Assembly: GCF_035285525.1 (NCBI RefSeq)
Contig: NZ_JAYKGW010000155.1
Location: 1-32,000, forward strand
Source of the DNA: Okeania sp.
Lineage (GTDB): Bacteria > Cyanobacteriota > Cyanobacteriia > Cyanobacteriales > Microcoleaceae
Direction of reading: 5' to 3'
DNA: 32,000 nt
A program made the position numbers and the translations under genes. The first letter of the stretch is position 1. Every line of letters starts with the position of its first letter. Under the pieces are notes generated by a model. It had not been told where the DNA came from and made no database searches. It saw only the letters and a list, made by a program, of their open reading frames with translations. Shown piece after piece: positions 9,942 through 22,624 of this stretch.

Positions 9942-10748
9942 TCAAACAACTTTAGATGACAATAATTTACGCAACCAAGTAAAAAAATTTTCTTGAGGAG
10001 GGTTTAAGTCAAGAAACTCTACTCTTTCTCCATCTAAACGACGAGCAATATTATTAAATTCCAAACCTGCTTGAGAAGGATTTTCTGCTAAGACTAAAGG
10101 TTCGCCTCGGTTAGTAGAGACAATTACTTTTTCATCATCTGGAATAATTCCCATTAGTGGAATAGCCAATATTTCTTTAACGTCTTGTACAGACATCATT
10201 TCATCAGCTAGCACCATATTTGGTCTAATGCGATTAACGATAAGATTGATTTTCCGGACATTATGTGCTTCTAGGAGTCCAATTACTCTGTCTGCATCAC
10301 GGACTGCAGATATTTCTGGAGTAGTAATAATTATAGCTTCTTGGGCTGGTGCAATTGCATTCTGGAACCCTTGTTCAATACCAGCAGGACAGTCAATCAA
10401 AATATATTCATATTTTGGCACTAACATATTGACTAATTCCTGCATTTGTTGAGGAGTAACTGCTTCTTTCATGCGGTTTTGAGCCGCCGGTAAAAGGGAT
10501 AAACGGGGTTGTCGTTTATCCCTAACTATTGCTTGTTCCAGACGACATTCTCCTGCTAAGACCTCCATTGCTGTATAAACAATTCTATTTTCCAAACCCA
10601 AAAGTAAGTCCAAATTTCTCAAACCGAAATCTGCATCAATTAGTGCAACTCGGCGACCTTGTTGAGCTAAAGCCATACCTAGGTTGGCTGTGCAGGTAGT
10701 TTTTCCTACTCCACCTTTACCAGAAGTAATCACAATAATTTTGCTCAT
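9942..10748 (-). CDS. minD: Septum site-determining ATPase MinD
   Basis: Deviant Walker A ([10 protein letters not shown]), a ParA/MinD fold signature and a C-terminal amphipathic helix (FFTWLRKLL). Confidence 0.97.
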
Positions 10749-10922
10749 AAGCTATTAGATATTAAGTATAAGTAATATATATATAGTCAATTTTTGTTAT
10801 AGTACAAAGGAGGCTTTTATAAATAAAATTTTATTTTTGCCAAATTTTAAGTCAGTCAGCCAAGATCTTCAAGCTTGTATATTCTAAACTTTATATGAGT
10901 ATTTTTCCCTAAAAATTTTTAA

Positions 10923-11192
10923 CTAGGGCTTGCTGAAAAAGTCTTTTTGTCAGAGGAGAATCCAGGAGAAATGAGAAATGAGAAACATAAAAGAGTAGGG
11001 ACCTTGGATGCAAGTTGCGTACAAAAGAATCAACATTATGATTTTCTGCCCCTCGAAATTCCCAAAATCCTAGAATGCATAATTTTTCGGGAACCGTACT
11101 GGAATCACCTAAAAGCTGGTACTTTATTAGTCTCTGTAAAAGCTGAAATCTTTACCAGTAAACACTTTTATATTTACATACGCAAACCCTAA
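10923..11192. mobile_element. MITE of the TAGGGYTTGCTGA...GCAAACCCTAA family, inserted between minD and minC
   Basis: Ends are CTAGGGCTTGCTGAAAAAGTC ... CGCAAACCCTAA. It shares the internal blocks CCTAAAAGCTGGTACTTT and TTTTTCGGGAACCGT with other copies. The track ORF 10947..11192 (TTG start) lies entirely inside it and is judged spurious. Confidence 0.7.
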
Positions 11193-12265: not shown

Positions 12266-12419
12266 AGAGTATGGGTTATTTTCTATCTTTTCTTATGGTT
12301 TAGATGAGCATATTATATAATCATTAGTCCAGAGTTTGGTTATTGTGTTATTTAGATTTTTTTACCATAAGATACAGCAGTAGTCAAGTTATAATTTCAA
12401 GTCGTAAAGGGTAAGGCAG

Positions 12420-12574
12420 AAGGCAGGAGGGTGTAGGGGAGTAGGGGGAGTAGGGGAGTAGGGGGAGTAGGGGAGAAAGATTCTGGTTGGGTTTCGCATT
12501 TCCATGCTCCGCAACCCTAAAGGGAACAACCCAACCTATATTGAACCATTTAAGGTGTGTCAGTCTAGTAGAGG
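12420..12574. repeat. Composite repeat: (GGGGAGTA)n octamer run + GTTGGGTTTCG...AACCCAAC hairpin + CATTTAAGGTGTGTCAGTCTAGTAG end
   Basis: The same three-part arrangement recurs in the same orientation at 28928-29052. Track ORF 12384..12584 is composed of this repeat and is rejected. Confidence 0.7.
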
Positions 12575-12944
12575 ACTGTTTCATCTAATAACTGTGCAGA
12601 GGGATTTTCTCTCTTGCTACCTTGTCTACCTTGTCTAGACACAATCAAAAAGTAATGCACCATTTAAGATGAAACAATACAGTACTGATTATCCAAAAAT
12701 CATATTAGTAGGATTTATTTGAGTTAGTAAAGCTATTACAGGCAAGATGTCTGTACGTCTGTGGTACTTCAATCATCATAACTTTTAAACAGGTGACATG
12801 ATTGATTCGACTTGATTCTATTTTTCTGATCGCTTATCCTACAGAATACTGGTCAACTGGAAGATTGGAAAAACTATTGGAAATAGGTGTTAATCAGATT
12901 TAATTAGGACTGACAAATTCTGTTCGCAGAAATCTCATGAAACT

Positions 12945-13045
12945 AGGACTTGCGCAGAAACTGGGTTGATTTAGGGAAATTTTGTTGTTTGAAGAACAAT
13001 ATCACCGCCATCAACCTGGTTTCTTGGTTGTGCGTGCGTAAGTCC
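12945..13045. mobile_element. AGGACTTACGCA-family element, subfamily with a GAAACYGGGTTGAT...AACCYGGTTTCTTGGT interior
   Basis: Ends are AGGACTTGCGCA ... GTGCGTAAGTCC. It has the same subfamily and orientation as 20563-20678. Confidence 0.75.
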
Positions 13046-13117
13046 AGATGAAGTCATTTGTAAGAAAAAATTTTAGGGGTTTCGAGACCAAACCCCGTTA
13101 GATAAAATATTACAATG

Positions 13118-13311
13118 TCAGAACTAAAGGCATGAATGCTAATTTTAGGGTGTGTTTTGACTTTATTATGTCTGTCCCGGAGCATTTTGCTCCGGGACAT
13201 GTTTGCGGAAATGTAGCATCCCGTAGGGAATCATTCCGCAGGAAAGGAAAAAGCGCACAACGCACAACGCACCAAGACTCTATAGATAGATAGTACCTTT
13301 GCATAAGTCCT
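13118..13311 (-). mobile_element. AGGACTTACGCA-family element (reverse orientation, degenerate far end)
   Basis: The reverse complement reads CAGGACTTATGCAAAGGTACTAT...GGTGCGTTGTGCGTTGTGCGC...CACCCTAAAATTAGCATTCATGCCTTTAGTTCTGA, which parallels the copy at 28049-28205. Track ORF 13110..13304 lies inside it and is rejected. Confidence 0.65.
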
Positions 13312-14291
13312 GATATATTTAAGTTTCCTGAAAAAGTCTAATAGTGATGATAGGGAACATTTAACTAGGAAATTGATTTTGCATAACAGTCATTGCGACG
13401 ATAGAAAGCAATTTCAGAGACCTAAAGAGATTGCTTCTTTCCACTTCTAATGACTTAAGTATAGAATTATCCGGATTTTATATACTTTGGATATTATTGC
13501 GGAATGGGAGCACATTCCGCACCGAAGAACTGACGTCTAATATCTGAATGGGAGCGCATTCCACAGGAAATGCTTACATTAGGAATTATGAATAATTACT
13601 TTATGTATTAGGGGGTTAAGGATGATTAACCCCCTATAAATTTTGTATATTTTCATCTTTTTGTAACTTATCATACATTATGAAAATATAGATTTAATTT
13701 GATGGGTTTACCTAATTAATTAATTAGGGTATGTAAATATAGCAATTTATATACTGATGAGGTCAAAAGTTTCGATTTGAGCTAACCTTAACCAGGAATA
13801 AAAAGAAAAAGATAAGTTTATCTCACGAGCTTAAAAACCGCTATACATTTTTTCCTACTTTACGATAACTTCATATTAGTCATAATATCTTGTTTTCACT
13901 ACAACATATAAATGACTAGGTAACATTTTTTATTTTGTTATTTTGCTCAGTATAATTTTGGTTTCAAGCCTATATTAATACAAATATAGTAATCTTATTT
14001 TCATCCTATCCAAAATTGCTTTGCTTTGAGTGCATAAGGAACAGAGAATAGTAAATAGGTGAAAGTTTAGGTTTTTTTATTGACTTTTTGATTTATCGGA
14101 AACAATTTAGGATGGCTATATAGCTTCAGTATATTAAATGTGTTTAGGTATAAAATGATCATAGACTTAGATGAAATATTTCCGTATAAAAACTATTGAA
14201 GCGAGTTAAATACCAGAAGAGTTTTTAAAGATTCAGTAAATTTATAGACAAAGGGTTGTCATGTTTAAGTAAGAATGGCTATAGTGTATTT

Positions 14292-14571
14292 GTCAGGGAA
14301 AAAAAAGTTAACTAACCCTCCAAAACCAGGAAAAGAACTGCAAGCTTCTATCTACGAAAATATCTAAATAAACTAATCATTGATGTCATCATTACTGACT
14401 GAATAGTAAGAGTAGCTATTGTCTGTATGTCAGTGAAAAAAAAGTTAACTAACCCTCCAAAATCAGGAAAAAAACTTCAAGTTTCTGTCTACACAAATAT
14501 CTGAAGAAACTAATCATTTACCTCATAATTACTGAAAAAAATTCGACATAATTAATTAAGGAGTTCTCAAA
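14292..14571 (+). promoter_or_regulatory. Doubled ~135-nt leader module directly upstream of PEP-CTERM gene 1, including the RBS AAGGAG
   Basis: Copies at 14292-14428 and 14429-14571 share GTCAG.GAAAAAAAAGTTAACTAACCCTCCAAAA.CAGGAAAA and CAAG.TTCT.TCTAC..AAATATCT.AA.AAACTAATCATT......CAT.ATTACTGA. AAGGAG lies 8 nt before the ATG. Confidence 0.6.
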
Positions 14572-15255: not shown

Positions 15256-15412
15256 GTAAAAATCTGGCGTTCGGGTGAGCGATCGCCCTACCTTTACTGA
15301 GAAACTCGGTTCAGATTCAATGCTGAATACATACACAGGACTCCTGATGAAGTCATTTGTGAGAAAAAAACTATAGGGGTTTGGTCTTCAAACCCCTACC
15401 ATAAATAAAATT

Positions 15413-15526
15413 AGGACTTACGCAAAGCAAGGTATTTCTGTCCGATACGAGCGACAGCGTTTGCGGAGCATTCCGTCAGGAAAGCAATCTCAAATGACCA
15501 AAGCTCCTCGATTATGCGTAAGTCCT
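15413..15526. mobile_element. AGGACTTACGCA-family element
   Basis: AGGACTTACGCAAAGCAAGG...GAGCATTCCGTCAGGAAAGCAA...GATTATGCGTAAGTCCT. Confidence 0.75.
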
Positions 15527-15734
15527 GTAAAATGTTACGATATATTTAGGGTTTCCTGAAAAAGTCTAGTAGTTATGACAGGGAACACTTAACTAGGAAA
15601 TTGATTTTGCATAACAACTCTAAGTAGTCCCTATCCATGATAGGAAGCAATTTCAGAGCTGCGTAGAGATTGCTATCCTTACCGAATGCTGCGCCAATCT
15701 TCCACTCCGTTTCAGTTCCAATGACTTAAATATC

Positions 15735-15823
15735 AGGACTTACGCAAAGGTACTATATGTAGAGTTAAAAAACTATTGCGCAATAGTTTTAACCACTATA
15801 TCTAGGGTCGCTGCGTAAGTCCT
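15735..15823. mobile_element. AGGACTTACGCA-family element (AAAAAACTATTGCGCAATAGTTTTAA interior); filled site relative to unit 1
   Basis: Sibling of 27898-27994. It is absent from the paralogous site in unit 1, which reads ATGACTTAAGTAT^AGAATTATCCGG at about 13451-13474. Confidence 0.8.
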
Positions 15824-15830
15824 GATATAT

Positions 15831-15923
15831 AGGACTGAAGCCATGAGTTACGAAAAACAGGGGTTTGAGATTGCTTCTCTTCGGTCGTATCGAACGAAAA
15901 TACGTTGCAGTTGCGTAAGTCCT
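15831..15923. mobile_element. AGGAC...GCGTAAGTCCT element with a degenerate left end, second insertion at the same site
   Basis: AGGACTGAAGCC...GGGGTTTGAGATTGCTTCTCTTCGG...GCAGTTGCGTAAGTCCT. The GGTTTGAGATTGCTT interior is shared with 17864-18008. Confidence 0.65.
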
Positions 15924-16558
15924 GATAGAATTATCCGGATTCTATATACTTTGGATATTATTGTTGAATGGGAGGGGATTCCACAGAAAGAGCTGACAGT
16001 TAATAGCTGAATGGGAGCGCATTCCACAGGAAATGCTTACATTAGGACTTACGAATAATTACTTTATGTATTAGGGGGTTAATGATTATTAACCCCCTAT
16101 GAATTTTGCATACTTTCATCTTTTCCTAATTTATAATTCATTATGAAAATATAAAGTTAACTTTATGGCCTTACCTAATTAATTAAGGTATGTAAACATA
16201 GGAATTTCTATACTGATGAGGTATAAAAGTTTGGATTTTAGCTAACATTAATAGGCAATAACAAAGATAAATAGATTAGTTTGCCCCACAAACTTGAAAA
16301 ACACATACATTTTTTCATGTTTTACTATAACTTAATATTAATAAAAATATTTTTTCACTTCATATAAACGACTAATTAAAATTTATTATTTTGTGGTTTT
16401 CATAACTATAATGAGGATTTTAAGCCTATATTCCTGGAAATATAGTCATCTTATTTTAGCATTAAGATCAGTTAAATTACACAAGATTTTTTTAAAGATT
16501 CGGTAAATTAATAGATAAGGGGTTGTCATACTTAAGTAAGAATGGCTATAGTGTATTC

Positions 16559-16834
16559 ATCAGGGAAAAAAGTTCATTAACTCTCCAAAATAGAGAGAAT
16601 AAATTCAAGCTTATATCTACGAAAATATCTTAATAAACTAATCATTGATGTCATAATTACTTACTAAATAGTAAGAGTAGTTATTGTATATATATCACTG
16701 AAAAAAAGTTCACTAACTATCCCAAACATGGAAAAGAACATCAAGTTTATGTCTATACAAATATCTGAATAAATTAATCATTGACATCATAATTACTGAA
16801 AAAACTCGACATAACTAATTAAGGAGTCCTCAAA
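16559..16834 (+). promoter_or_regulatory. Doubled ~135-nt leader module directly upstream of PEP-CTERM gene 2, including the RBS AAGGAG
   Basis: Copies at 16559-16693 and 16694-16834 are homologous to each other and to the two modules at 14292-14571. Confidence 0.6.
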
Positions 16835-17461
16835 ATGAAAAACCAAATCGTTGCTTCCATTCTTTCTGTTCCTTTTGCTTTAGGTGCTGCTGTATTCGCT
16901 ACTACTGGTGCTGCTAATGCTGCTTCTTTAAGTGGTAGTTTCCAATTTGATGGTTCAGGCGATCCTCCAACTACCCTTATTCTTACCGATGATCAACTTG
17001 ATTTCAATCCTGATGATGCACAGCTTGACCTCAAACTACAAACAGAAAGTTTTACATCTTTTGATTCTGCTTTCATTTATGACTTAGAAAACCCAGTTAA
17101 TCCTAATCCTAGTTTATTTATCGATTTAGGCGATCAAGATGGTGAGAACCTTTTATATGTTAACAACATAGGAGAATATGTCTATACTGGTGTTGGTTTG
17201 TCAACTATTATAGGTATTTCATTCGATGGTTTCTTTGAGAGCACCACTGGTGAAATATCACAGGCAACAGGTTTAATTAGTCTCACCGCAAACGATACTG
17301 TTGCAAATGTACAAAATGCTGTAGAAAATGGTACTGGTATTCAGGCAAGTTTCACTGGTTTTAGTGTTGCTACTACTTCTGTTCCTGAACCAACTACATT
17401 ATTTGGTCTAGGTGTTGTTGCTACAGGTTTAGTTGCTAGTCGTCGTAAGAAAGATGCTTAA
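16835..17461 (+). CDS. PEP-CTERM sorting-domain secreted protein, paralog 2
   Basis: Same RBS and a near-identical signal peptide (MKNQIVASILSVPFALGAAVFATTGAANA). Same tail (VPEPTTLFGLGVVATGLVASRRKKDA). The mature region is only distantly similar to paralog 1. Confidence 0.88.
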   Translation: MKNQIVASILSVPFALGAAVFATTGAANAASLSGSFQFDGSGDPPTTLILTDDQLDFNPDDAQLDLKLQTESFTSFDSAFIYDLENPVNPNPSLFIDLGDQDGENLLYVNNIGEYVYTGVGLSTIIGISFDGFFESTTGEISQATGLISLTANDTVANVQNAVENGTGIQASFTGFSVATTSVPEPTTLFGLGVVATGLVASRRKKDA

Positions 17462-17617
17462 GTAAAAATCTGCTGATAGGGTGAGCGATCGCCCTACCCT
17501 CTGCTTTCCTCCAAAGTGTAACTATTCAACCGGACATGATCGGGACTTACCCAAAGAAACGCGGTTTCTAAAGTAAATCATTGTTTTTGACAATAAACAT
17601 TTACCGAAGAATTAATA

Positions 17618-17860
17618 ATTAGAGTTTGCGCTTCTTCAGTCTTTTAGTAGCGGGGAGGAGCCAGAATCGAGCAATCCAGAAGGAATGGTCATTACAGAAG
17701 AGGTAGGAGGAAGAATTATCCCTTGATTTTCTGTCACAATTAGCCAAAAATACTAGACTTTTTAGCTTTCAAGATCTAAAAGCTGGTACTTTTTCCCGAC
17801 TAAAAAAGCTGACACCTTTATCTATTAATGCTTTCATGCTTTTTTCACAGACCCTAATTA
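17618..17860 (+). mobile_element. ~245-bp MITE (TAGRGTTTGC...CCCTAATTA family), copy A, left of the PAD-like gene
   Basis: Collinear and in the same orientation as 20732-20982. The central stretch of more than 100 nt (CCAGAAGGAATGGTCATTACAGAAGAGGTAGGAGGAAGAATTATC.CTTGATTTTCTGTCACAATTAGCCAAAAATACTAGACTTTTTAGCTTTCAA) differs at one position by eye. Confidence 0.85.
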
Positions 17861-17863
17861 ACC

Positions 17864-18008
17864 AGGACTTACGCATTAGAAATGCAATTTCAAGGTTTGA
17901 GATTGCTTTCCTTCAGAATGCTGCGCTTTCCATGTCGCGAAGTGAAACGCTGTTGCTTGCGCTGCGAGTCGCGCCATGACAAAAATACGCTGCGGGTGCG
18001 TAAGTCCT
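17864..18008. mobile_element. AGGACTTACGCA-family element
   Basis: AGGACTTACGCATTAGAAATGC...GGTTTGAGATTGCTTTCC...GCTGCGGGTGCGTAAGTCCT. It abuts MITE copy A. Confidence 0.8.
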
Positions 18009-18157
18009 GTTAACATTAACTTAGGTTGAATTATCAAAAAATTGATTCTGTTTATGCTAATGAGTTAATAACTGGAGTCTTGCCCAAGCATAGCACTATT
18101 TTTAGGAATTGGTATAAAACAAATGTAGAGTCTCTCCAATTACTGAGGTAAAGTTAG

Positions 18158-18225
18158 TTTTCTTCTTTTCTTCTTTTCTTCTTTTCTTCTTTTCTTCTTT
18201 TCTTCTTTTCTTCTTTTCTTCTTTT
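18158..18225. repeat. Octanucleotide microsatellite (TTTTCTTC on the plus strand, GAAGAAAA on the gene strand), about 8.5 units
   Basis: A perfect tandem run, read directly. It ends exactly at the stop codon (18226-18228) of the PAD-like gene. Confidence 0.95.
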
Positions 18226-20469
18226 CTACTCCCTATTCCCTAAAAAAGATTTCCAGAAAGAATAATTTTTTCCTAAACGAGTTGTATTCGTAGCATCCTG
18301 AACATTGCCTTTCAATTCTTGATAATATTTATCGTCCATAAAATTAATATTTAAACTAGAATCAGCCACCAATCTCCGGAATTTTTCCTCAGTATAATCT
18401 CTCCCATTAATTAATGCTCCTCCAGGATTGGAAACCAATAATTCTCCATTAATCGCTACCGAATTAACCATATTCGGCCACCAAGCATAACCGCTATATC
18501 CAAACATTGCTGGCACTCTAATTATCTGTTGATCAGTCAGATTAAATTCCTGTTTTAACTTCTCTATTAATGGATTTATTTTTTCCCTTTGTAAATAGAG
18601 ATTATGCTCAATTAATCTAGTATTTTTTAAAGTAGCTCTTACTGTTGTTTGAGTGCTTGAACCACGATTTATAGCAGCTTGACCATAACCTTGTTGACTC
18701 AATTCTTCTAATAATTTAACCCCCGCTTCTGGACTCACAATTAACATTAATGGTTTGCCAAATTTGCTAGGAATAAAATTAATAATTTCATCAACATGAC
18801 GAATCATTAACCAAGAAGTATCAATATCAACTGGCGGACCTTGAACTTTCTGTGCTTTAATAAAGTCAATAATTTCAGGATTCATACCTACTTCTCCTGC
18901 TTTACCATAATATATTCTTCCCATCGGATATCCTGGTAAAGATGGTGTCACCTCCAGATTTCCATAACCATCCACCCATCTATTTAGAGGATCAAGTCGT
19001 CTAGGTTGACCAACTTCAAACCAACCAAAATTTTCTTTGAGAAGACTGAGAGAATATTGGTCATTTTCCCCCTCACGATTAGCTTTGAGGACCACATTCA
19101 TATTATGGAGCTGACCTTGACTGGGAAACTGCACATAACCTATTTCTTGAGTGTCTTGCATCCAGGTAGTGCCACCAGGATTAATTTTTGCTGTGGCACC
19201 TGTTTTTTCAATAATTTCTCTAATTTTATTAATAAACTCTTCATTGGCAAAACCACGATCGCTCACATGAAGTTCTTTGACTGGAGCAGTATTAGGAGAC
19301 ATTAACCAAGGAACCACACCTATTTGAATACTATCAGTAGCAATTTGTTGACCATTTTTTTCAGCGATCGCCTTCAAATTAACTACTCCTTTCCAGTTGC
19401 GATCAGCAAATTGTTTTGCTTCTACACCTAATACTATTTTATCCCCAGGTATCAAAGCTTCAATGCCAGAAATATCTACTCTTTCCCATCCATATTCTGT
19501 TTTTTGGAAAACATTGATATAATCACTAACATTTGCATCTGTAGAAATATAAATTTGAGCATCCCGATAAGTTTCTGCCAATTGAATATTAATCATAGCT
19601 AAATCTGCTACATCACTTTCACCATTAACATATTGATCTTCCCAGTCTGGAATGAAATCATTGTTATCATCATCATTATTAAATAACATCAACGCACCTG
19701 TTGATAAAGACCATTTTTCTCTATCTGACTTATCAGTTTCATCCAGTTTCCCATCTCTGTTAGTATCACCATAAATTGTGAAACCAGGGGATAAACTATA
19801 TGCAATAGGTGAATGAGTTTCAGTATTATTATTTATTTGATTTTCTGTATCTTCTTCCCATGCTCTTGCTGCTATTACTTTTTCATAACAAGCAACTGCT
19901 AAATACCCCTGGTATTCTATCATTTTTTCAATCGCTCGATCTGTCATCAATGAATCTTGAGGTATTTGTCGCAAAGTTTCAATTGCCTCTAACCATAAAT
20001 TTTCTGCTTCTTGCCATGTTTGATAATTTGGCTGTTTATTTTTTCCTTTTGCTACTGCATTAGTTGCTATGCTCAGTGCTTGTTTCCAATTTTCAACAGC
20101 TTTTTCTTCTTTAATAATTCTTGCTTCTAAACTACGGAAATCTTTCAAAGTTTTTTCATATTGTCGCACTTGAAATTGGTATTGCCAAGGTTCTATTTTA
20201 TTTTGAAAATTTGGCATTTTAGATACTTTATCAAGTTCTTTTTTTAGTTGGTTTTTAACCTCGTAAAGTTCTGGTAGAGAAGTTATTTGTTCAGGAATTT
20301 TTATACTGTTATTTGCCAAATTAATAGTTTCTAACAAAGAAACTTCTGAACTTTCTGGTTGAAGAAGTGAAGATTGTGCTACTGCTTGAGGCATAGGTAT
20401 CCAAATAATTCCTACCAATGCTCCCACAGTATTAACTAGAGCTATTTTAACGTATCGCATCCAACCCAT
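18226..20469 (-). CDS. Secreted protein-arginine deiminase (PAD)-like protein lacking the catalytic cysteine
   Basis: Start chosen at ATG 20469 (GAAAGGA lies 8 nt upstream); the track ORF begins at a TTG at 20517. It has a signal peptide ending AVA|QS, a helical N-terminal region, then PAD middle-domain and catalytic-domain motifs: WMQDTQEIGY, GYGNLEVTP, YPMGRIYYG, HVDEIINFIP, WWPNMVNSV. The expected GEVHCGTN motif reads GNVQDATN. Confidence 0.8.
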   Translation of the reverse strand: MGWMRYVKIALVNTVGALVGIIWIPMPQAVAQSSLLQPESSEVSLLETINLANNSIKIPEQITSLPELYEVKNQLKKELDKVSKMPNFQNKIEPWQYQFQVRQYEKTLKDFRSLEARIIKEEKAVENWKQALSIATNAVAKGKNKQPNYQTWQEAENLWLEAIETLRQIPQDSLMTDRAIEKMIEYQGYLAVACYEKVIAARAWEEDTENQINNNTETHSPIAYSLSPGFTIYGDTNRDGKLDETDKSDREKWSLSTGALMLFNNDDDNNDFIPDWEDQYVNGESDVADLAMINIQLAETYRDAQIYISTDANVSDYINVFQKTEYGWERVDISGIEALIPGDKIVLGVEAKQFADRNWKGVVNLKAIAEKNGQQIATDSIQIGVVPWLMSPNTAPVKELHVSDRGFANEEFINKIREIIEKTGATAKINPGGTTWMQDTQEIGYVQFPSQGQLHNMNVVLKANREGENDQYSLSLLKENFGWFEVGQPRRLDPLNRWVDGYGNLEVTPSLPGYPMGRIYYGKAGEVGMNPEIIDFIKAQKVQGPPVDIDTSWLMIRHVDEIINFIPSKFGKPLMLIVSPEAGVKLLEELSQQGYGQAAINRGSSTQTTVRATLKNTRLIEHNLYLQREKINPLIEKLKQEFNLTDQQIIRVPAMFGYSGYAWWPNMVNSVAINGELLVSNPGGALINGRDYTEEKFRRLVADSSLNINFMDDKYYQELKGNVQDATNTTRLGKNYSFWKSFLGNRE

Positions 20470-20562
20470 AGTATAAATCCTTTCTAAGAAACCTATAATA
20501 ATCTCTAAAGTATACAATTCTCTATTTTATTCGAGTTTCAATGAGAATTGTTTAAATATTTT

Positions 20563-20678
20563 AGGACTTACGCAGAAACCGGGTTGATCAGACAATTTTT
20601 CGGGAACCGTATTTCCTGGTTTGAACCACAATATCACAGGCCAAAACCCGGTTTCTTGGTGGCGCGTGCGTAACTCCT
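20563..20678. mobile_element. AGGACTTACGCA-family element, same subfamily and orientation as 12945-13045
   Basis: AGGACTTACGCAGAAACCGGGTTGAT...AAACCCGGTTTCTTGGTGGCGCGTGCGTAACTCCT. Confidence 0.8.
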
Positions 20679-20731
20679 GTATTTAATTTACACAAATAGA
20701 AAACTAACTGCTATCCTTAGCCAAATTTAGT

Positions 20732-20982
20732 AATTAGGGTTTGCCTAAAAAGTCTTTTAGTAGGGAGGAGGCTCCAGAATCGGTGAATCCAGAATCCAGA
20801 AGGAATGGTCATTACAGAAGAGGTAGGAGGAAGAATTATCTCTTGATTTTCTGTCACAATTAGCCAAAAATACTAGACTTTTTAGCTTTCAACACCTAAA
20901 AGCTGGTACTTTTTCCTGACTGAAAAAGGCTGAAACCTTTATTTAATGGTGCTTTTATGCTTTTTTCAGCCAGCCCTAATTA
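20732..20982 (+). mobile_element. ~250-bp MITE, copy B, right of the PAD-like gene
   Basis: See copy A (17618-17860). It contains an extra GAATCCAGAATCCA micro-duplication. Confidence 0.85.
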
Positions 20983-20985
20983 TAA

Positions 20986-21080
20986 TAAATCCGGTTCGTG
21001 GAGAGAAATTTACTCTGAAGGTAAGGCAGTCAAGATGAGAGAGCAAGAGCAAAAAGTGACCTCTTTAATAACCGGATTTA
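20986..21080. mobile_element. Small MITE with perfect 11-bp TIRs (TAAATCCGGTT / AACCGGATTTA)
   Basis: TIRs read directly. It abuts MITE copy B. Confidence 0.65.
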
Positions 21081-21250
21081 GTATGATATAAAGTTCTGCA
21101 AGAATTGATTTGATTTTTTATTTTTGGAGATGTCTATTCTTATCTTTCTTTTAGCTTTTTTTTAGTAATTATATTGTCTTGGGATAATAAAATAAGTGAT
21201 AAAAAAATTTATCATTTCTCACCTTTTCTTTCCTTCTACCTTCTGCCTAT

Positions 21251-21459
21251 TGACCAATAAAAATTTTAACTTTTTTAGGCTTTGATTTCTCGGAAACCGT
21301 AAAAGTAGGAGTTTTTAGGTCCCTCAGGTTAAAAAAGTAAGCTTTTAATCCTGACTAGGGCAGAAAAATCAAGGGATAATTGTTCTAATTTATCGGGAAC
21401 CGTCTATATCCTCTTAACTCTTAACTACTCCCTACTCCCTACTCCCTAACTTAACAAAA
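21251..21459 (+). repeat. Truncated copy of the interior of the neighbouring MITE (direct repeat, offset about 278 bp)
   Basis: TGACCAATAAAA.TTTTAACTTTTTTAGGCTTTGATTT.TCGG.AACCGTAAAAGTA ... GGCAGAAAAATCAAGGGATAATTGTTCT.ATTTATCGGGAACCGT.TATATCCTCTTAAC...TACTCCCTACTCCCTACTCCCTAACTTAACAAAA is repeated at 21529-21735. Confidence 0.8.
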
Positions 21460-21493
21460 TGAGATTACTGTATATTTCCGGTTGATAGATCGT

Positions 21494-21760
21494 AATTAGG
21501 GTTGGCTGAATAAATCTAAAATTATTACTGACCAATAAAAGTTTTAACTTTTTTTAGGCTTTGATTTATCGGGAACCGTAAAAGTACGAGATTTTTTTGC
21601 TCATACATAGAGGAACAAAAATTAGTATTTAGGTAAGACCAAGGCAGAAAAATCAAGGGATAATTGTTCTGATTTATCGGGAACCGTGTATATCCTCTTA
21701 ACTACTCCCTACTCCCTACTCCCTAACTTAACAAAAAGACTTTTTCAGCAAACCCTAATT
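21494..21760. mobile_element. MITE of the TTAGGGTTGGCTGA...TCAGCAAACCCTAATT family
   Basis: Both TIR ends are present: AATTAGGGTTGGCTGAATAAATCTAAAA ... AAAGACTTTTTCAGCAAACCCTAATT. Confidence 0.75.
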
Positions 21761-21868
21761 ATATATAAATTTTATAGGATAGTTAATAAATACCTTATTT
21801 GGCTTCATATTATCTGCCTAATTATGACTTTTCAACCGGAAATTTTTGTCATATTCTTTAACCCAATC

Positions 21869-22624
21869 CTAATTTGGTTTTACCCAATTAGCTGTTTCTA
21901 GATTATTCGCACTAGCTCCATTATTAGGTAACTCTAAACAGTAACCAGCACCGTATACTGTTTTAATAAATCGAGGATGACGAGGATCTGGTTCCATCTT
22001 CGTTCTCAAATGTCTAATATGGACTCGAATCGTCTCAATATCATCATCTGGATCATAACCCCAAACTTCCTTGAGAATTTCACTAGGAGATACTGTTTGG
22101 CCATGACGTTGCAATAAACAGTGGAGTAACTCAAATTCTAAATGAGTTAGTTTAACTGTTTGATCAAACCAAATAGCCTCAAACCTTTCTGGAACTAAAG
22201 TCAGAGGGCCATAACTGAGTATTTCGCTATGTTTAGCTGCTTGAGGAATTCGATCTGTCCGTCGCAGTAAGGCACGCACTCTTGCTAATAATTCTTCAAC
22301 TTCAAAAGGTTTTGTTAAATAATCATCTGCTCCAGAATTGAAGCCTTCTACTTTATCTTGGGTTTGACCCAAAGCAGTTAACATCAATATAGGAATATCT
22401 GCTGTCCGTTCATCACGACGCAGACGTTGACATACCGTAAACCCATCTACTTTTGGTAGCATTAAATCTAATACTATCATGTCTGGTAATAGTTGCAAAG
22501 CTAGGGCTTGCCCTTTTATACCATCCTCTGCTTGACTAACTTCATAGCCAGCCATTTCTAGGTTTACGGCAACGAGTTCTGCGATCGCAGGATCATCATC
22601 AATGACGAGTATTCTAGGCATCAT
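21869..22624 (-). CDS. rpaA: OmpR-family response regulator RpaA (circadian/redox output regulator)
   Basis: Receiver domain plus winged-helix domain. Long stretches match RpaA as I remember it ([113 protein letters not shown]). Confidence 0.85.

Follow-up and report, generated by a model that had tools for sequence, protein, structure and literature searches.

A cyanobacterial protein-arginine deiminase homologue with aspartate at the nucleophile position, from a Cys-less clade of putative pseudoenzymes

The role of citrullination in human disease has made the protein-arginine deiminases (PADs) a much-studied family, whose bacterial origin is under active discussion. In PAD chemistry, a Cys thiolate attacks the guanidinium carbon of arginine, leading to an S-alkylthiouronium intermediate. 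Here we analyse a PAD homologue of Okeania sp. that carries Asp in place of this Cys. It is encoded on the minus strand of contig NZ_JAYKGW010000155.1, of which positions 1 to 32,000 were studied (hereafter the window). Among the described relatives, human PADI1-4 and the ‘cyanoPADI’ of Cyanothece sp. 8801 are active Ca2+-dependent citrullinating enzymes, cytoplasmic or nuclear (PMC8826395). Cummings et al. describe every catalytic residue as conserved throughout the PADI homologues (PMC8826395). Mammalian PADI6, in which Ala stands at the aligned Cys and the Asp/His/Asp residues are kept, binds no Ca2+ and is inactive in vitro, and it is an essential component of oocyte cytoplasmic lattices (PMC11402830).

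Residues of the window protein are counted from the ATG-encoded Met of the 747-residue form; Pfam, phmmer and the column counts on 65 sequences were run on a reference one residue longer. The gene, its domains and its active-site motifs, with PADI4 equivalents in brackets, are as follows.

18226..20469, minus strand: coding sequence (CDS) of the PAD homologue, 747 residues plus stop (open reading frame (ORF) list; identical database protein P0001; start Met common to orthologues).
20377..20469, minus strand: residues 1-31, Sec-type signal peptide or signal anchor, MGWMRYVKIALVNTVGALVGIIWIPMPQAVA followed by QS (hydrophobicity and clade conservation; predicted cleavage).
20290..20376, minus strand: residues ~32-60, variable linker, low confidence (predicted local distance difference test (pLDDT) of AlphaFold2 (AF2) <50 for 28-56; length varies in the alignment).
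19831..20280, minus strand: residues ~64-213, four-helix N-terminal domain of this cyanobacterial PAD lineage, which holds C194 (AF2).
19345..19785, minus strand: residues ~229-375, PAD middle domain (Ig-like beta) with the acidic Ca-binding cluster N264, D266, D268, D275 and D286 (Pfam PAD_M, AF2 beta strands).
18229..19344, minus strand: residues 376-747, PAD catalytic (pentein) domain (Pfam PAD, PADI4, Foldseek).
19144..19164, minus strand: WMQDTQE, comprising W436 (W347), Q438 (Q349, Ca1), D439 (D350, catalytic), T440 (E351, Ca2 ligand absent) and E442 (E353, Ca1) (PADI4 alignment, columns, codons).
18790..18798, minus strand: H558-V-D560, equivalents of catalytic H471 and D473 (PADI4 alignment, columns, codons).
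18286..18309, minus strand: G-N-V-Q-D-A-T-N, in which D725 replaces the nucleophile Cys645, Q724 replaces His644 and N728 (N648) is kept (alignment, codons).

The window protein matches the Pfam PAD family (PF03068) over positions 2-395 of the 395-position model (E=4.6e-63, 214 bits against a cut-off of 25) and PAD_M (PF08527) at E=1.8e-8 (34.6 bits, cut-off 24.8); a search of NCBIfam gave no meaningful match. Searched by phmmer against PDB sequences, it aligns with human PADI4 over residues ~224-741 (E=4e-51), with PADI3, PADI2 and PADI1 at about 1e-49 each, and with PADI6 at 2.7e-22. An AF2 model built from 65 homologues has a mean pLDDT of 84.7. Its best Foldseek matches are PADI4, PADI1, PADI3 and PADI2, with E-values down to 8e-47 and a template modelling (TM) score to PADI4 of 0.72, normalised to the target. 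Membership of the PAD family, proposed in an earlier note on this DNA, is thus borne out by the profile matches, the PADI4 alignment and the modelled fold; the profile and structural comparisons, run as a check on that proposal, upheld the relationship throughout (Pfam, phmmer, AF2/Foldseek).

In the phmmer alignment, an Asp of the window protein sits at position 645 of the PADI4 C645A crystal construct. The motif WMQDTQEIGY is paired with WMQDEMEIGY, IRHVDEI with VGHVDEF, and KGNVQDATN with HGEVH(A)GTN of that construct. The column assignment is unambiguous, and direct codon checks gave GAT at 18295-18297 for D725 and CAG for Q724. Alignment and codons agree that the other three catalytic residues are retained: D439, the D350 equivalent (19153-19155), H558 (18796-18798) and D560 (18790-18792). 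The equivalents of the Ca1 ligands, Q438, E442 and E506 (Q349, E353 and E411), are present. The sole cysteine, C194 (TGT 19888-19890, within VACYEK), is located in the N-terminal part, at a column filled by Ala, Ser or Thr in orthologues, and the PAD region has no Cys. The earlier note had described the Cys-to-Asp change, the three remaining catalytic residues, the cysteine-free PAD region and an export signal followed by a helical N-terminal domain. All of these stand, the export signal as a prediction by inspection of the hydrophobic stretch and of AVA-QS, and the helices by the AF2 model. Sequencing error is ruled out, because a survey of orthologues found GAT at this codon in 22 orthologous loci. 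As a PAD-fold homologue that lacks a residue essential to the chemistry of the family, the protein fits, on homology, the operational definition of a pseudoenzyme.

We then extended the comparison to relatives of the window protein. Cys is absent from the nucleophile column in all 120 closest database proteins, whose identity runs from 100% to about 48%, and most of these proteins contain no Cys anywhere. They come from Okeania, Dapis, Trichodesmium, Lyngbya/Limnoraphis/Capilliphycus, Planktothrix, Arthrospira/Limnospira, Kamptonema, Tychonema and Microcoleus. In the 65-sequence subset this column holds Ser (24), Asp (16), Thr (11), Gly (7), Ala (5), Gln (1) and Asn (1). Genomes were scanned with one representative per GTDB species, which gave 153 relatives; the best 80 loci were kept, and each genome occurs once among these 80. 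An intact ORF is maintained at about 50% identity across these loci, and the nucleophile codon specifies Ser in 39 of them, Asp (always GAT) in 22, Thr in 8, Ala in 4, Cys in 4, Gly in 2 and Met in 1. The GAT loci belong to Dapis, Okeania, Trichodesmium and allied metagenome-assembled genomes, and the Ser codons include both TCN and AGY. An exhaustive HMMER search of 1.84 billion cluster representatives returned 1570 PAD relatives; among the best 150 of these, His-Cys is found in 129 of the 134 PAD representatives outside the clade that cover the column. Four distant metagenomic proteins (P0164, P0167, P0201 and P0256) have Arg at the nucleophile column, and also D473S or H471M/A, and N648Q/S/A. 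P0164 and P0167 cluster together beside a Cys-bearing relative, and the four proteins possibly represent another degenerate PAD lineage.

To follow the history of the Cys loss, neighbour-joining (NJ) trees were computed from the PAD region and bootstrapped 200 times. Monophyly of the Cys-less clade is fully supported (200/200), and the clade is nested among Cys-bearing cyanobacterial PADs. Its sister (200/200) is a group of proteins of about 620 residues from Microcoleus sp. FACHB-68 and Oscillatoria spp., here called the P0121 group, which has the N-terminal hydrophobic segment in common with the clade, is devoid of the helical domain and mostly reads G-N-T-H-C-A-T-N. Outside both (199/200) are proteins of about 750 residues from Zarconia navalis LEGE 11467 and Geitlerinemataceae, which possess the helical N-terminal domain and the full catalytic set. 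We infer that the helical domain predates the loss of Cys and that this loss happened just once, on the stem of the clade. The ancestor would thus have been an exported, Cys-bearing PAD with a helical N-terminal domain in filamentous cyanobacteria, and the Zarconia and Geitlerinemataceae forms would still be like it. A single Cys loss would have followed at the base of the clade formed by Okeania, Trichodesmium, Dapis, Planktothrix, Lyngbya, Arthrospira, Microcoleus and Kamptonema. Later, the column would have drifted among small or polar residues and single lineages would have lost more catalytic residues, the rest of the protein being kept under purifying selection.

The Cys was also replaced, by Ser or Thr, inside the P0121 group (P0309, P0316, P0318, P0323 and L054, at L054:7689-9563; 198/200), and this loss is accompanied by E353K at the Ca1 site in P0316, P0318, P0323 and L054. 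This second loss looks independent, and loss of the nucleophile looks recurrent in exported cyanobacterial PADs. The Zarconia protein (L065:195-2486) and P0296-P0307, all of about 750 residues, carry WMQDTMEIGY, IRHVDEI and GNTHCATN complete.

To see how selection has acted on the gene, the ratio of non-synonymous to synonymous substitution rates (dN/dS) was calculated against orthologues with unsaturated dS. It is 0.11-0.17 for the catalytic domain (PAD_C), 0.12-0.33 for PAD_M and 0.20-0.46 for the N-terminal part; within the gene, constraint is strongest on the catalytic domain. Column conservation was compared between 101 Cys-bearing representatives and 50 dereplicated Cys-less sequences. 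Twenty-nine columns are at least 93% conserved in the Cys-bearing set, and 21 of them stay at least 90% conserved in the Cys-less set. The eight relaxed columns correspond to D155 and D176 (PAD_M Ca ligands), D350, G503, H471, D473, H644 and C645. The losses are specific to lineages, with H471Q in Microcoleus and Arthrospira, D350G in Planktothrix and D473S in the Lyngbya group. The D350/H471/D473 triad is intact in only 12 of the 38 members that do not carry Asp at the nucleophile column, and the Ca1 ligands are eroded elsewhere in the Cys-less clade. About 50 columns show the reverse pattern, being at least 96% conserved in the Cys-less clade and below 40% in Cys-bearing PADs, for example G384 (Arg in 82% of Cys-bearing PADs), F263, W276, N601-R602, Y658/Y661/W663 and Y692. 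This pattern is the signature of a putative pseudoenzyme lineage with an acquired or retained non-catalytic function. If catalysis was lost clade-wide while the protein stays under selection, the function selected for therefore needs no catalysis.

The members that carry Asp at the nucleophile column form a distinct case. Dereplication of this Asp subclade (Okeania, Trichodesmium, Dapis and relatives) left 12 sequences, with pairwise identity down to 58%; the subclade is recovered as a clade in 147/200 bootstraps, its core in 200/200. All 12 have Asp at the nucleophile column, the D350/H471/D473 triad, W347 and all PAD_M Ca ligands; the columns of the PAD_M Ca cluster, at least 94% conserved in Cys-bearing PADs, are 100% conserved here. 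The Ca1 ligands are less uniform (Q349 and E353 in 11/12 each, E411 in 7/12), and the His644 column holds His in six members, Arg in three, Gly in two and Gln in one, which is the window protein. Since about 40% of columns do not vary within the subclade, four pocket columns would be jointly invariant by chance in about 2.6% of cases, if columns are independent and shared ancestry is ignored. The joint invariance of the pocket is thus suggestive, although not decisive.

The N-terminal part of the protein bears on its location. Hydrophobicity is highest at residues ~8-25 of the protein, with the Kyte-Doolittle maximum at 8-24; R5/K8 stand in front and AVA-QS behind, and the AxA-Q-S/P motif and N13/G16 are conserved across the clade. 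By inspection, residues 1-31 read as a Sec signal peptide. An uncleaved signal anchor is a possible alternative, because the hydrophobic region is long (about 17 residues) and unusually conserved. At the place where the Cys-less clade has AxA-QS, the Zarconia-type proteins show a conserved PP-x-x-C after the hydrophobic segment (for example ALSPPAPCGW) and the P0121 group shows APPASCS; PP-x-x-C could be a lipoprotein-type signal.

In the AF2 model, the helices of the N-terminal domain span residues 66-84, 95-143, 150-168 and 177-214, and a model of this domain by itself reaches a pLDDT of 87.4. The domain is homologous to that of the Cys-bearing Zarconia protein, with invariant columns in common. 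No relatives of it were found by Pfam (21 members), by a profile against PDB sequences or by Foldseek with the domain model; these searches together gave nothing beyond insignificant matches to generic helical bundles (best E 0.24). A database search with the N-terminal 225 residues retrieved same-family fragments only, and no other architectures at that sensitivity. In the Microcoleus group (P0080, P0122 and about 40 Microcoleus/Tychonema proteins; loci L050-L080), a long Glu/Arg/Lys/Gln-rich helix-like stretch and Pro/Thr-rich repeats are inserted before PAD_M. The inserts of members of this group match Pfam HC2 (PF07382) and sit between the N-terminal domain and PAD_M, in proteins of 820-905 residues.

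Since Asp occupies the nucleophile column and no other Cys is available, we infer that the window protein does not citrullinate: with Asp725 for Cys645, the S-alkylthiouronium intermediate should be unable to form. We consider it fairly probable that the protein is an exported, Ca2+-dependent, non-catalytic arginine-/guanidinium-binding and/or scaffold protein, set on a helical N-terminal stalk outside the cytoplasm. Export would be Sec-dependent, through the N-terminal hydrophobic signal, and the protein would end up periplasmic/extracellular or membrane-tethered, its flexible linker and four-helix domain then carrying PAD_M and PAD_C. The window protein retains the fold, the PAD_M Ca cluster, the Ca1 ligands Q438, E442 and E506, and the guanidinium-clamping residues W436, D439, H558 and D560. 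A pocket composed of D439, D560 and D725 together with W436 and H558, next to an intact Ca1 site, should still clamp a guanidinium group. Most likely, then, the protein would bind a guanidinium or peptidyl-arginine ligand in a Ca2+-dependent manner without catalysis, and/or act as an extracytoplasmic scaffold. Arginine binding by the Asp-subclade proteins is plausible because they keep the rest of the pocket. Some points weigh against this interpretation. The presumed inactivity is deduced solely from the missing thiolate. A pocket that still carries out chemistry would explain the strict Asp, the intact triad and the intact Ca1 site of the Asp subclade just as well. Finally, the genomic context gives no functional partner, the neighbours being housekeeping genes.

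If the pocket of the Asp subclade does act on a guanidino (or amidino/ureido) substrate, by hydrolysis or transfer, Asp725 with His558 could serve as a general base that activates water or an oxygen nucleophile, an adaptation to an oxidising exterior that inactivates thiolates. The invariance of Asp, triad, W347 and PAD_M Ca ligands in all 12 members, against a triad kept in 12/38 elsewhere, is in line with such an altered chemistry, as are the strong constraint on PAD_C and the fact that the whole clade is predicted to be exported and is nearly Cys-free. To our knowledge, however, no guanidino-group-modifying (pentein) enzyme works without a Cys thiolate, so that this chemistry would be without precedent. 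Moreover, sister sublineages have Gly or Ala, which are not nucleophiles, at the column, and have lost H471 or D350, and yet their protein is conserved equally well; the ancestral function after the loss would therefore be non-catalytic. His644, which stands beside the Cys in 99% of Cys-bearing PADs, is Gln in the window protein and varies among His, Arg, Gly and Gln in the subclade. We consequently regard the altered-chemistry enzyme as rather improbable. That the Asp-subclade proteins are working extracytoplasmic Cys-independent enzymes, evolved from a dead intermediate or directly under oxidative pressure, seems to us a long shot; if true, they would be the first Cys-independent member of the guanidino-group-modifying (pentein) superfamily. 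The earlier note had left the choice between a pseudoenzyme and an altered chemistry. Of the two, the pseudoenzyme is favoured by the variety of residues at the column (Ser, Asp, Thr, Gly, Ala, Met, Asn and Gln) and by the sublineages that lost D350, H471 or D473.

The former active site might also be irrelevant, the protein working as a pure scaffold through other surfaces, such as oligomerisation of the helical N-terminal domain or the newly constrained patches, as in PADI6. The pocket of the Asp subclade would in that case be conserved for structural reasons or because divergence has been limited. A scaffold would accommodate the clade-wide erosion of catalytic and Ca1 residues on a maintained fold and the gain of constraint at about 50 columns of the Cys-less clade. 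The charged-helix and Pro/Thr-rich spacers of the Microcoleus proteins, which would be typical of extracytoplasmic structural proteins, point the same way, and PADI6 provides a precedent. On the other hand, a scaffold-only view does not predict that pocket residues and PAD_M Ca ligands are kept in the subclade of the window gene, and the neighbourhoods of the best 80 of 153 loci yielded no partner gene. We therefore judge a pure scaffold unlikely. An artefact would mean that the codon was misread in sequencing or assembly, or that a normal PAD gene is decaying into a pseudogene; the sole oddity in this direction is a perfect octamer microsatellite at the stop codon, together with a C-terminal tail shorter than that of orthologues. 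The idea of an artefact conflicts with GAT in 22 independent genomes, with an identical protein in an independent assembly, with the same-cluster protein WP_324237380.1, and with a full-length ORF under a dN/dS of 0.11-0.26, and its probability is negligible. A non-catalytic, exported arginine-binding and/or scaffold protein is thus the interpretation we retain.

The position of the protein among PAD lineages can also be specified. Pfam detects no PAD_N cupredoxin domain in the window protein, and the four-helix domain stands in its place. The Ca2-site ligands of PADI4 (E351, D369, S370 and N373) are replaced by T440, Lys, Ala and Glu, respectively; Thr at the E351 column is also usual in Cys-bearing bacterial PADs. 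Calcium sites 2 and 4 are exclusive to the three-domain cyanobacterial/animal clade, named ‘Clade Ai’ (Cummings et al. 2021, PMC8826395). In the supplementary trees of that study, a separate long-branch clade with 100% support holds Trichodesmium, Lyngbya, Planktothrix, Arthrospira and Oscillatoria, and adjoins Lysobacter/Thalassospira and actinobacterial sequences (PMC8826395). Our NJ tree places the window protein among PADs without PAD_N. The label ‘eukaryote-type’, attached to it in the earlier note, is therefore misleading: the protein belongs to a bacterial lineage without PAD_N and without the Ca2 site, outside the three-domain clade linked to animal PADIs.

Six members of the Cys-less clade are present, unremarked, in the supplementary alignment and trees of Cummings et al. 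(PMC8826395), and we found no mention of Cys-less or pseudo-PADs in bacteria in the literature searched. The Trichodesmium ‘arginine deiminase’ of Schriek et al., considered as a candidate, is an unrelated ArgZ-type protein. The sequences themselves are not new, being annotated as ‘protein-arginine deiminase (family/domain-containing) protein’; what is new is the putative pseudoenzyme branch, the N-terminal domain and the natural variation at every catalytic position.

The two ends of the gene deserve comment, for which two further features are needed.

20470..20560, minus strand: 5' leader or promoter-proximal region with a TAAAAT box and an AGGA Shine-Dalgarno-like element, and an in-frame TTG (20515-20517) inside (alignment of 13 orthologous loci).
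18158..18227, no strand: perfect octamer microsatellite, TTTTCTTC on the plus strand and GAAGAAAA on the minus strand, 8.8 copies, which abuts the stop codon (Tandem Repeats Finder score 140, 100% matches).

The maximal ORF, 18226..20517 on the minus strand, has 763 residues when read from TTG. We took the CDS as 18226-20469 because orthologues begin at the internal Met and because a conserved leader with a GAGGA-type Shine-Dalgarno sequence precedes the ATG. In the upstream alignment of the 13 loci, this conserved block ends in ...TAAAAT...GAGGAT(G/A)TATACT-ATG. The true start is almost certainly the ATG at 20467-20469, the protein beginning with MGWMRYV. The minus-strand ORF reported in the earlier note does exist, but orthologue starts and the leader alignment show that its coordinates take in 48 nt of leader. 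The 90%-identity cluster of the protein also holds a 763-residue version, annotated in Okeania sp. under WP_324237380.1 as ‘protein-arginine deiminase domain-containing protein’. In the orthologous regions upstream of the gene, there is no conserved NtcA-type site (GTA-N8-TAC). At the other end, the window protein finishes with ...FWKSFLGNRE, and its closest orthologues run on for at least 13 residues (...SLSDNISEFKAQSLDMADMR); the octamer repeat may stand in place of a lost 3' gene end.

The genes around the PAD gene of the window are minC/minD, an ATP synthase beta-type subunit, a PEP-CTERM protein, an OmpR-type regulator and aroA. Two of them are located as follows.

21869-22624, minus strand: OmpR-family response regulator, about 1.3 kb upstream and on the same strand as the PAD gene (93-96% identical in full-length matches from Okeania/Dapis/Trichodesmium).
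16835-17461, plus strand: 208-residue secreted protein with the C-terminal PEP-CTERM motif VPEPTTLFGLGVVATGLVASRRKK, convergent with the PAD gene, whose 3' end is about 0.8 kb away.

Clustering of all neighbours of the best 80 of 153 loci revealed no clade-wide partner gene, and the PEP-CTERM protein lies beside the PAD gene in none of these loci. The neighbours that do recur are confined to particular lineages (a trypsin-like/TPR protein, putA, and a DUF433/DUF5615 pair in Microcoleus). In the Microcoleus group, the trypsin-like peptidase/TPR protein is found downstream on the opposite strand in 30 loci, with putA next in 24. Synteny is restricted to the upstream side, mainly in Okeania/Dapis/Trichodesmium, where the OmpR regulator is the only recurrent neighbour. 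Its adjacency is kept in about 18-20 loci, including one of Planktothrix (L026) and one of another Oscillatoriales (L048). Apart from about 60 nt in front of the ATG, the long spacer between the two genes (20470-21868) shows little conservation. In 16 loci of the Okeania/Dapis/Trichodesmium type, the PAD gene is followed by a conserved 145-residue ORF without Pfam match (in L001 at 10490-10927); the window, rearranged on the downstream side, lacks this ORF. The window also contains long stretches without ORFs of at least 100 residues (12266-14571, 15256-16834, 17462-18225 and 20518-21868). Trichodesmium-like genomes have a high non-coding fraction, which would fit these stretches.

The lineage described here is old and vertically inherited; it dropped the nucleophile and kept the fold under strong selection. 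It covers bloom-forming, ecologically dominant filamentous cyanobacteria (Trichodesmium, Planktothrix, Microcoleus, Arthrospira and Okeania). Its natural Cys-to-Asp/Ser/Thr/Gly/Ala variants, together with their Cys-bearing sisters, offer material to dissect catalysis-independent functions of PADs. The variants also call for caution in annotation: all are labelled ‘protein-arginine deiminase’, and surveys of genomes would take them for a capacity to citrullinate. Since pseudoenzymes are widespread and an inactive PAD has been described before, the clade is of interest as a variant and does not establish a new principle, unless the Asp forms are active.

The closest systems for comparison are the Cys-bearing relatives of about 750 residues (Zarconia/Geitlerinemataceae) and about 620 residues (FACHB-68/Oscillatoria). 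They are 44-60% identical to the window protein, with the same hydrophobic segment, PAD_M and PAD_C, and likewise without Ca2 ligands; the Zarconia group has the same helical N-terminal domain in addition. They differ by the full G-N-T-H-C-A-T-N and all catalytic residues, and look catalytically competent as judged from their sequences. The Cyanothece cyanoPADI and human PADI1-4 share with the window protein the PAD_M and PAD_C fold, D350/H471/D473, W347, Ca1 and the PAD_M Ca3/5-type ligands. In contrast, these enzymes have Cys645, His644, PAD_N and Ca sites 2 and 4, all four of which the window protein lacks, while it has an export signal.

The engineered mutants PADI4 C645A and PADI3 C646A fold and bind Ca2+ and arginine substrates (PDB 1wda, 2dew/2dex/2dey, 7d5r), and are thus the best available model of what a natural Cys-less PAD pocket can do. 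They carry an engineered Ala, whereas the window protein has a naturally fixed Asp, a third carboxylate in the pocket. PADI6 resembles the window protein in that the nucleophile Cys is replaced, Asp/His/Asp are kept and the protein is maintained by selection. The two losses are independent, because PADI6 matches the window protein only at 2.7e-22 compared to 4e-51 for PADI4. PADI6 is cytoplasmic, possesses PAD_N, has lost Ca binding, has its cleft blocked by an inserted loop, and keeps two flanking cysteines that are discussed as possible nucleophiles. In contrast, the cyanobacterial protein is predicted to be exported, carries a helical N-terminal domain, has a Cys-free PAD region and, in the window protein, keeps the Ca1 and PAD_M Ca ligands. 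The clade thus mirrors the PADI6 puzzle in bacteria and offers, for each catalytic position, many natural ‘mutants’.

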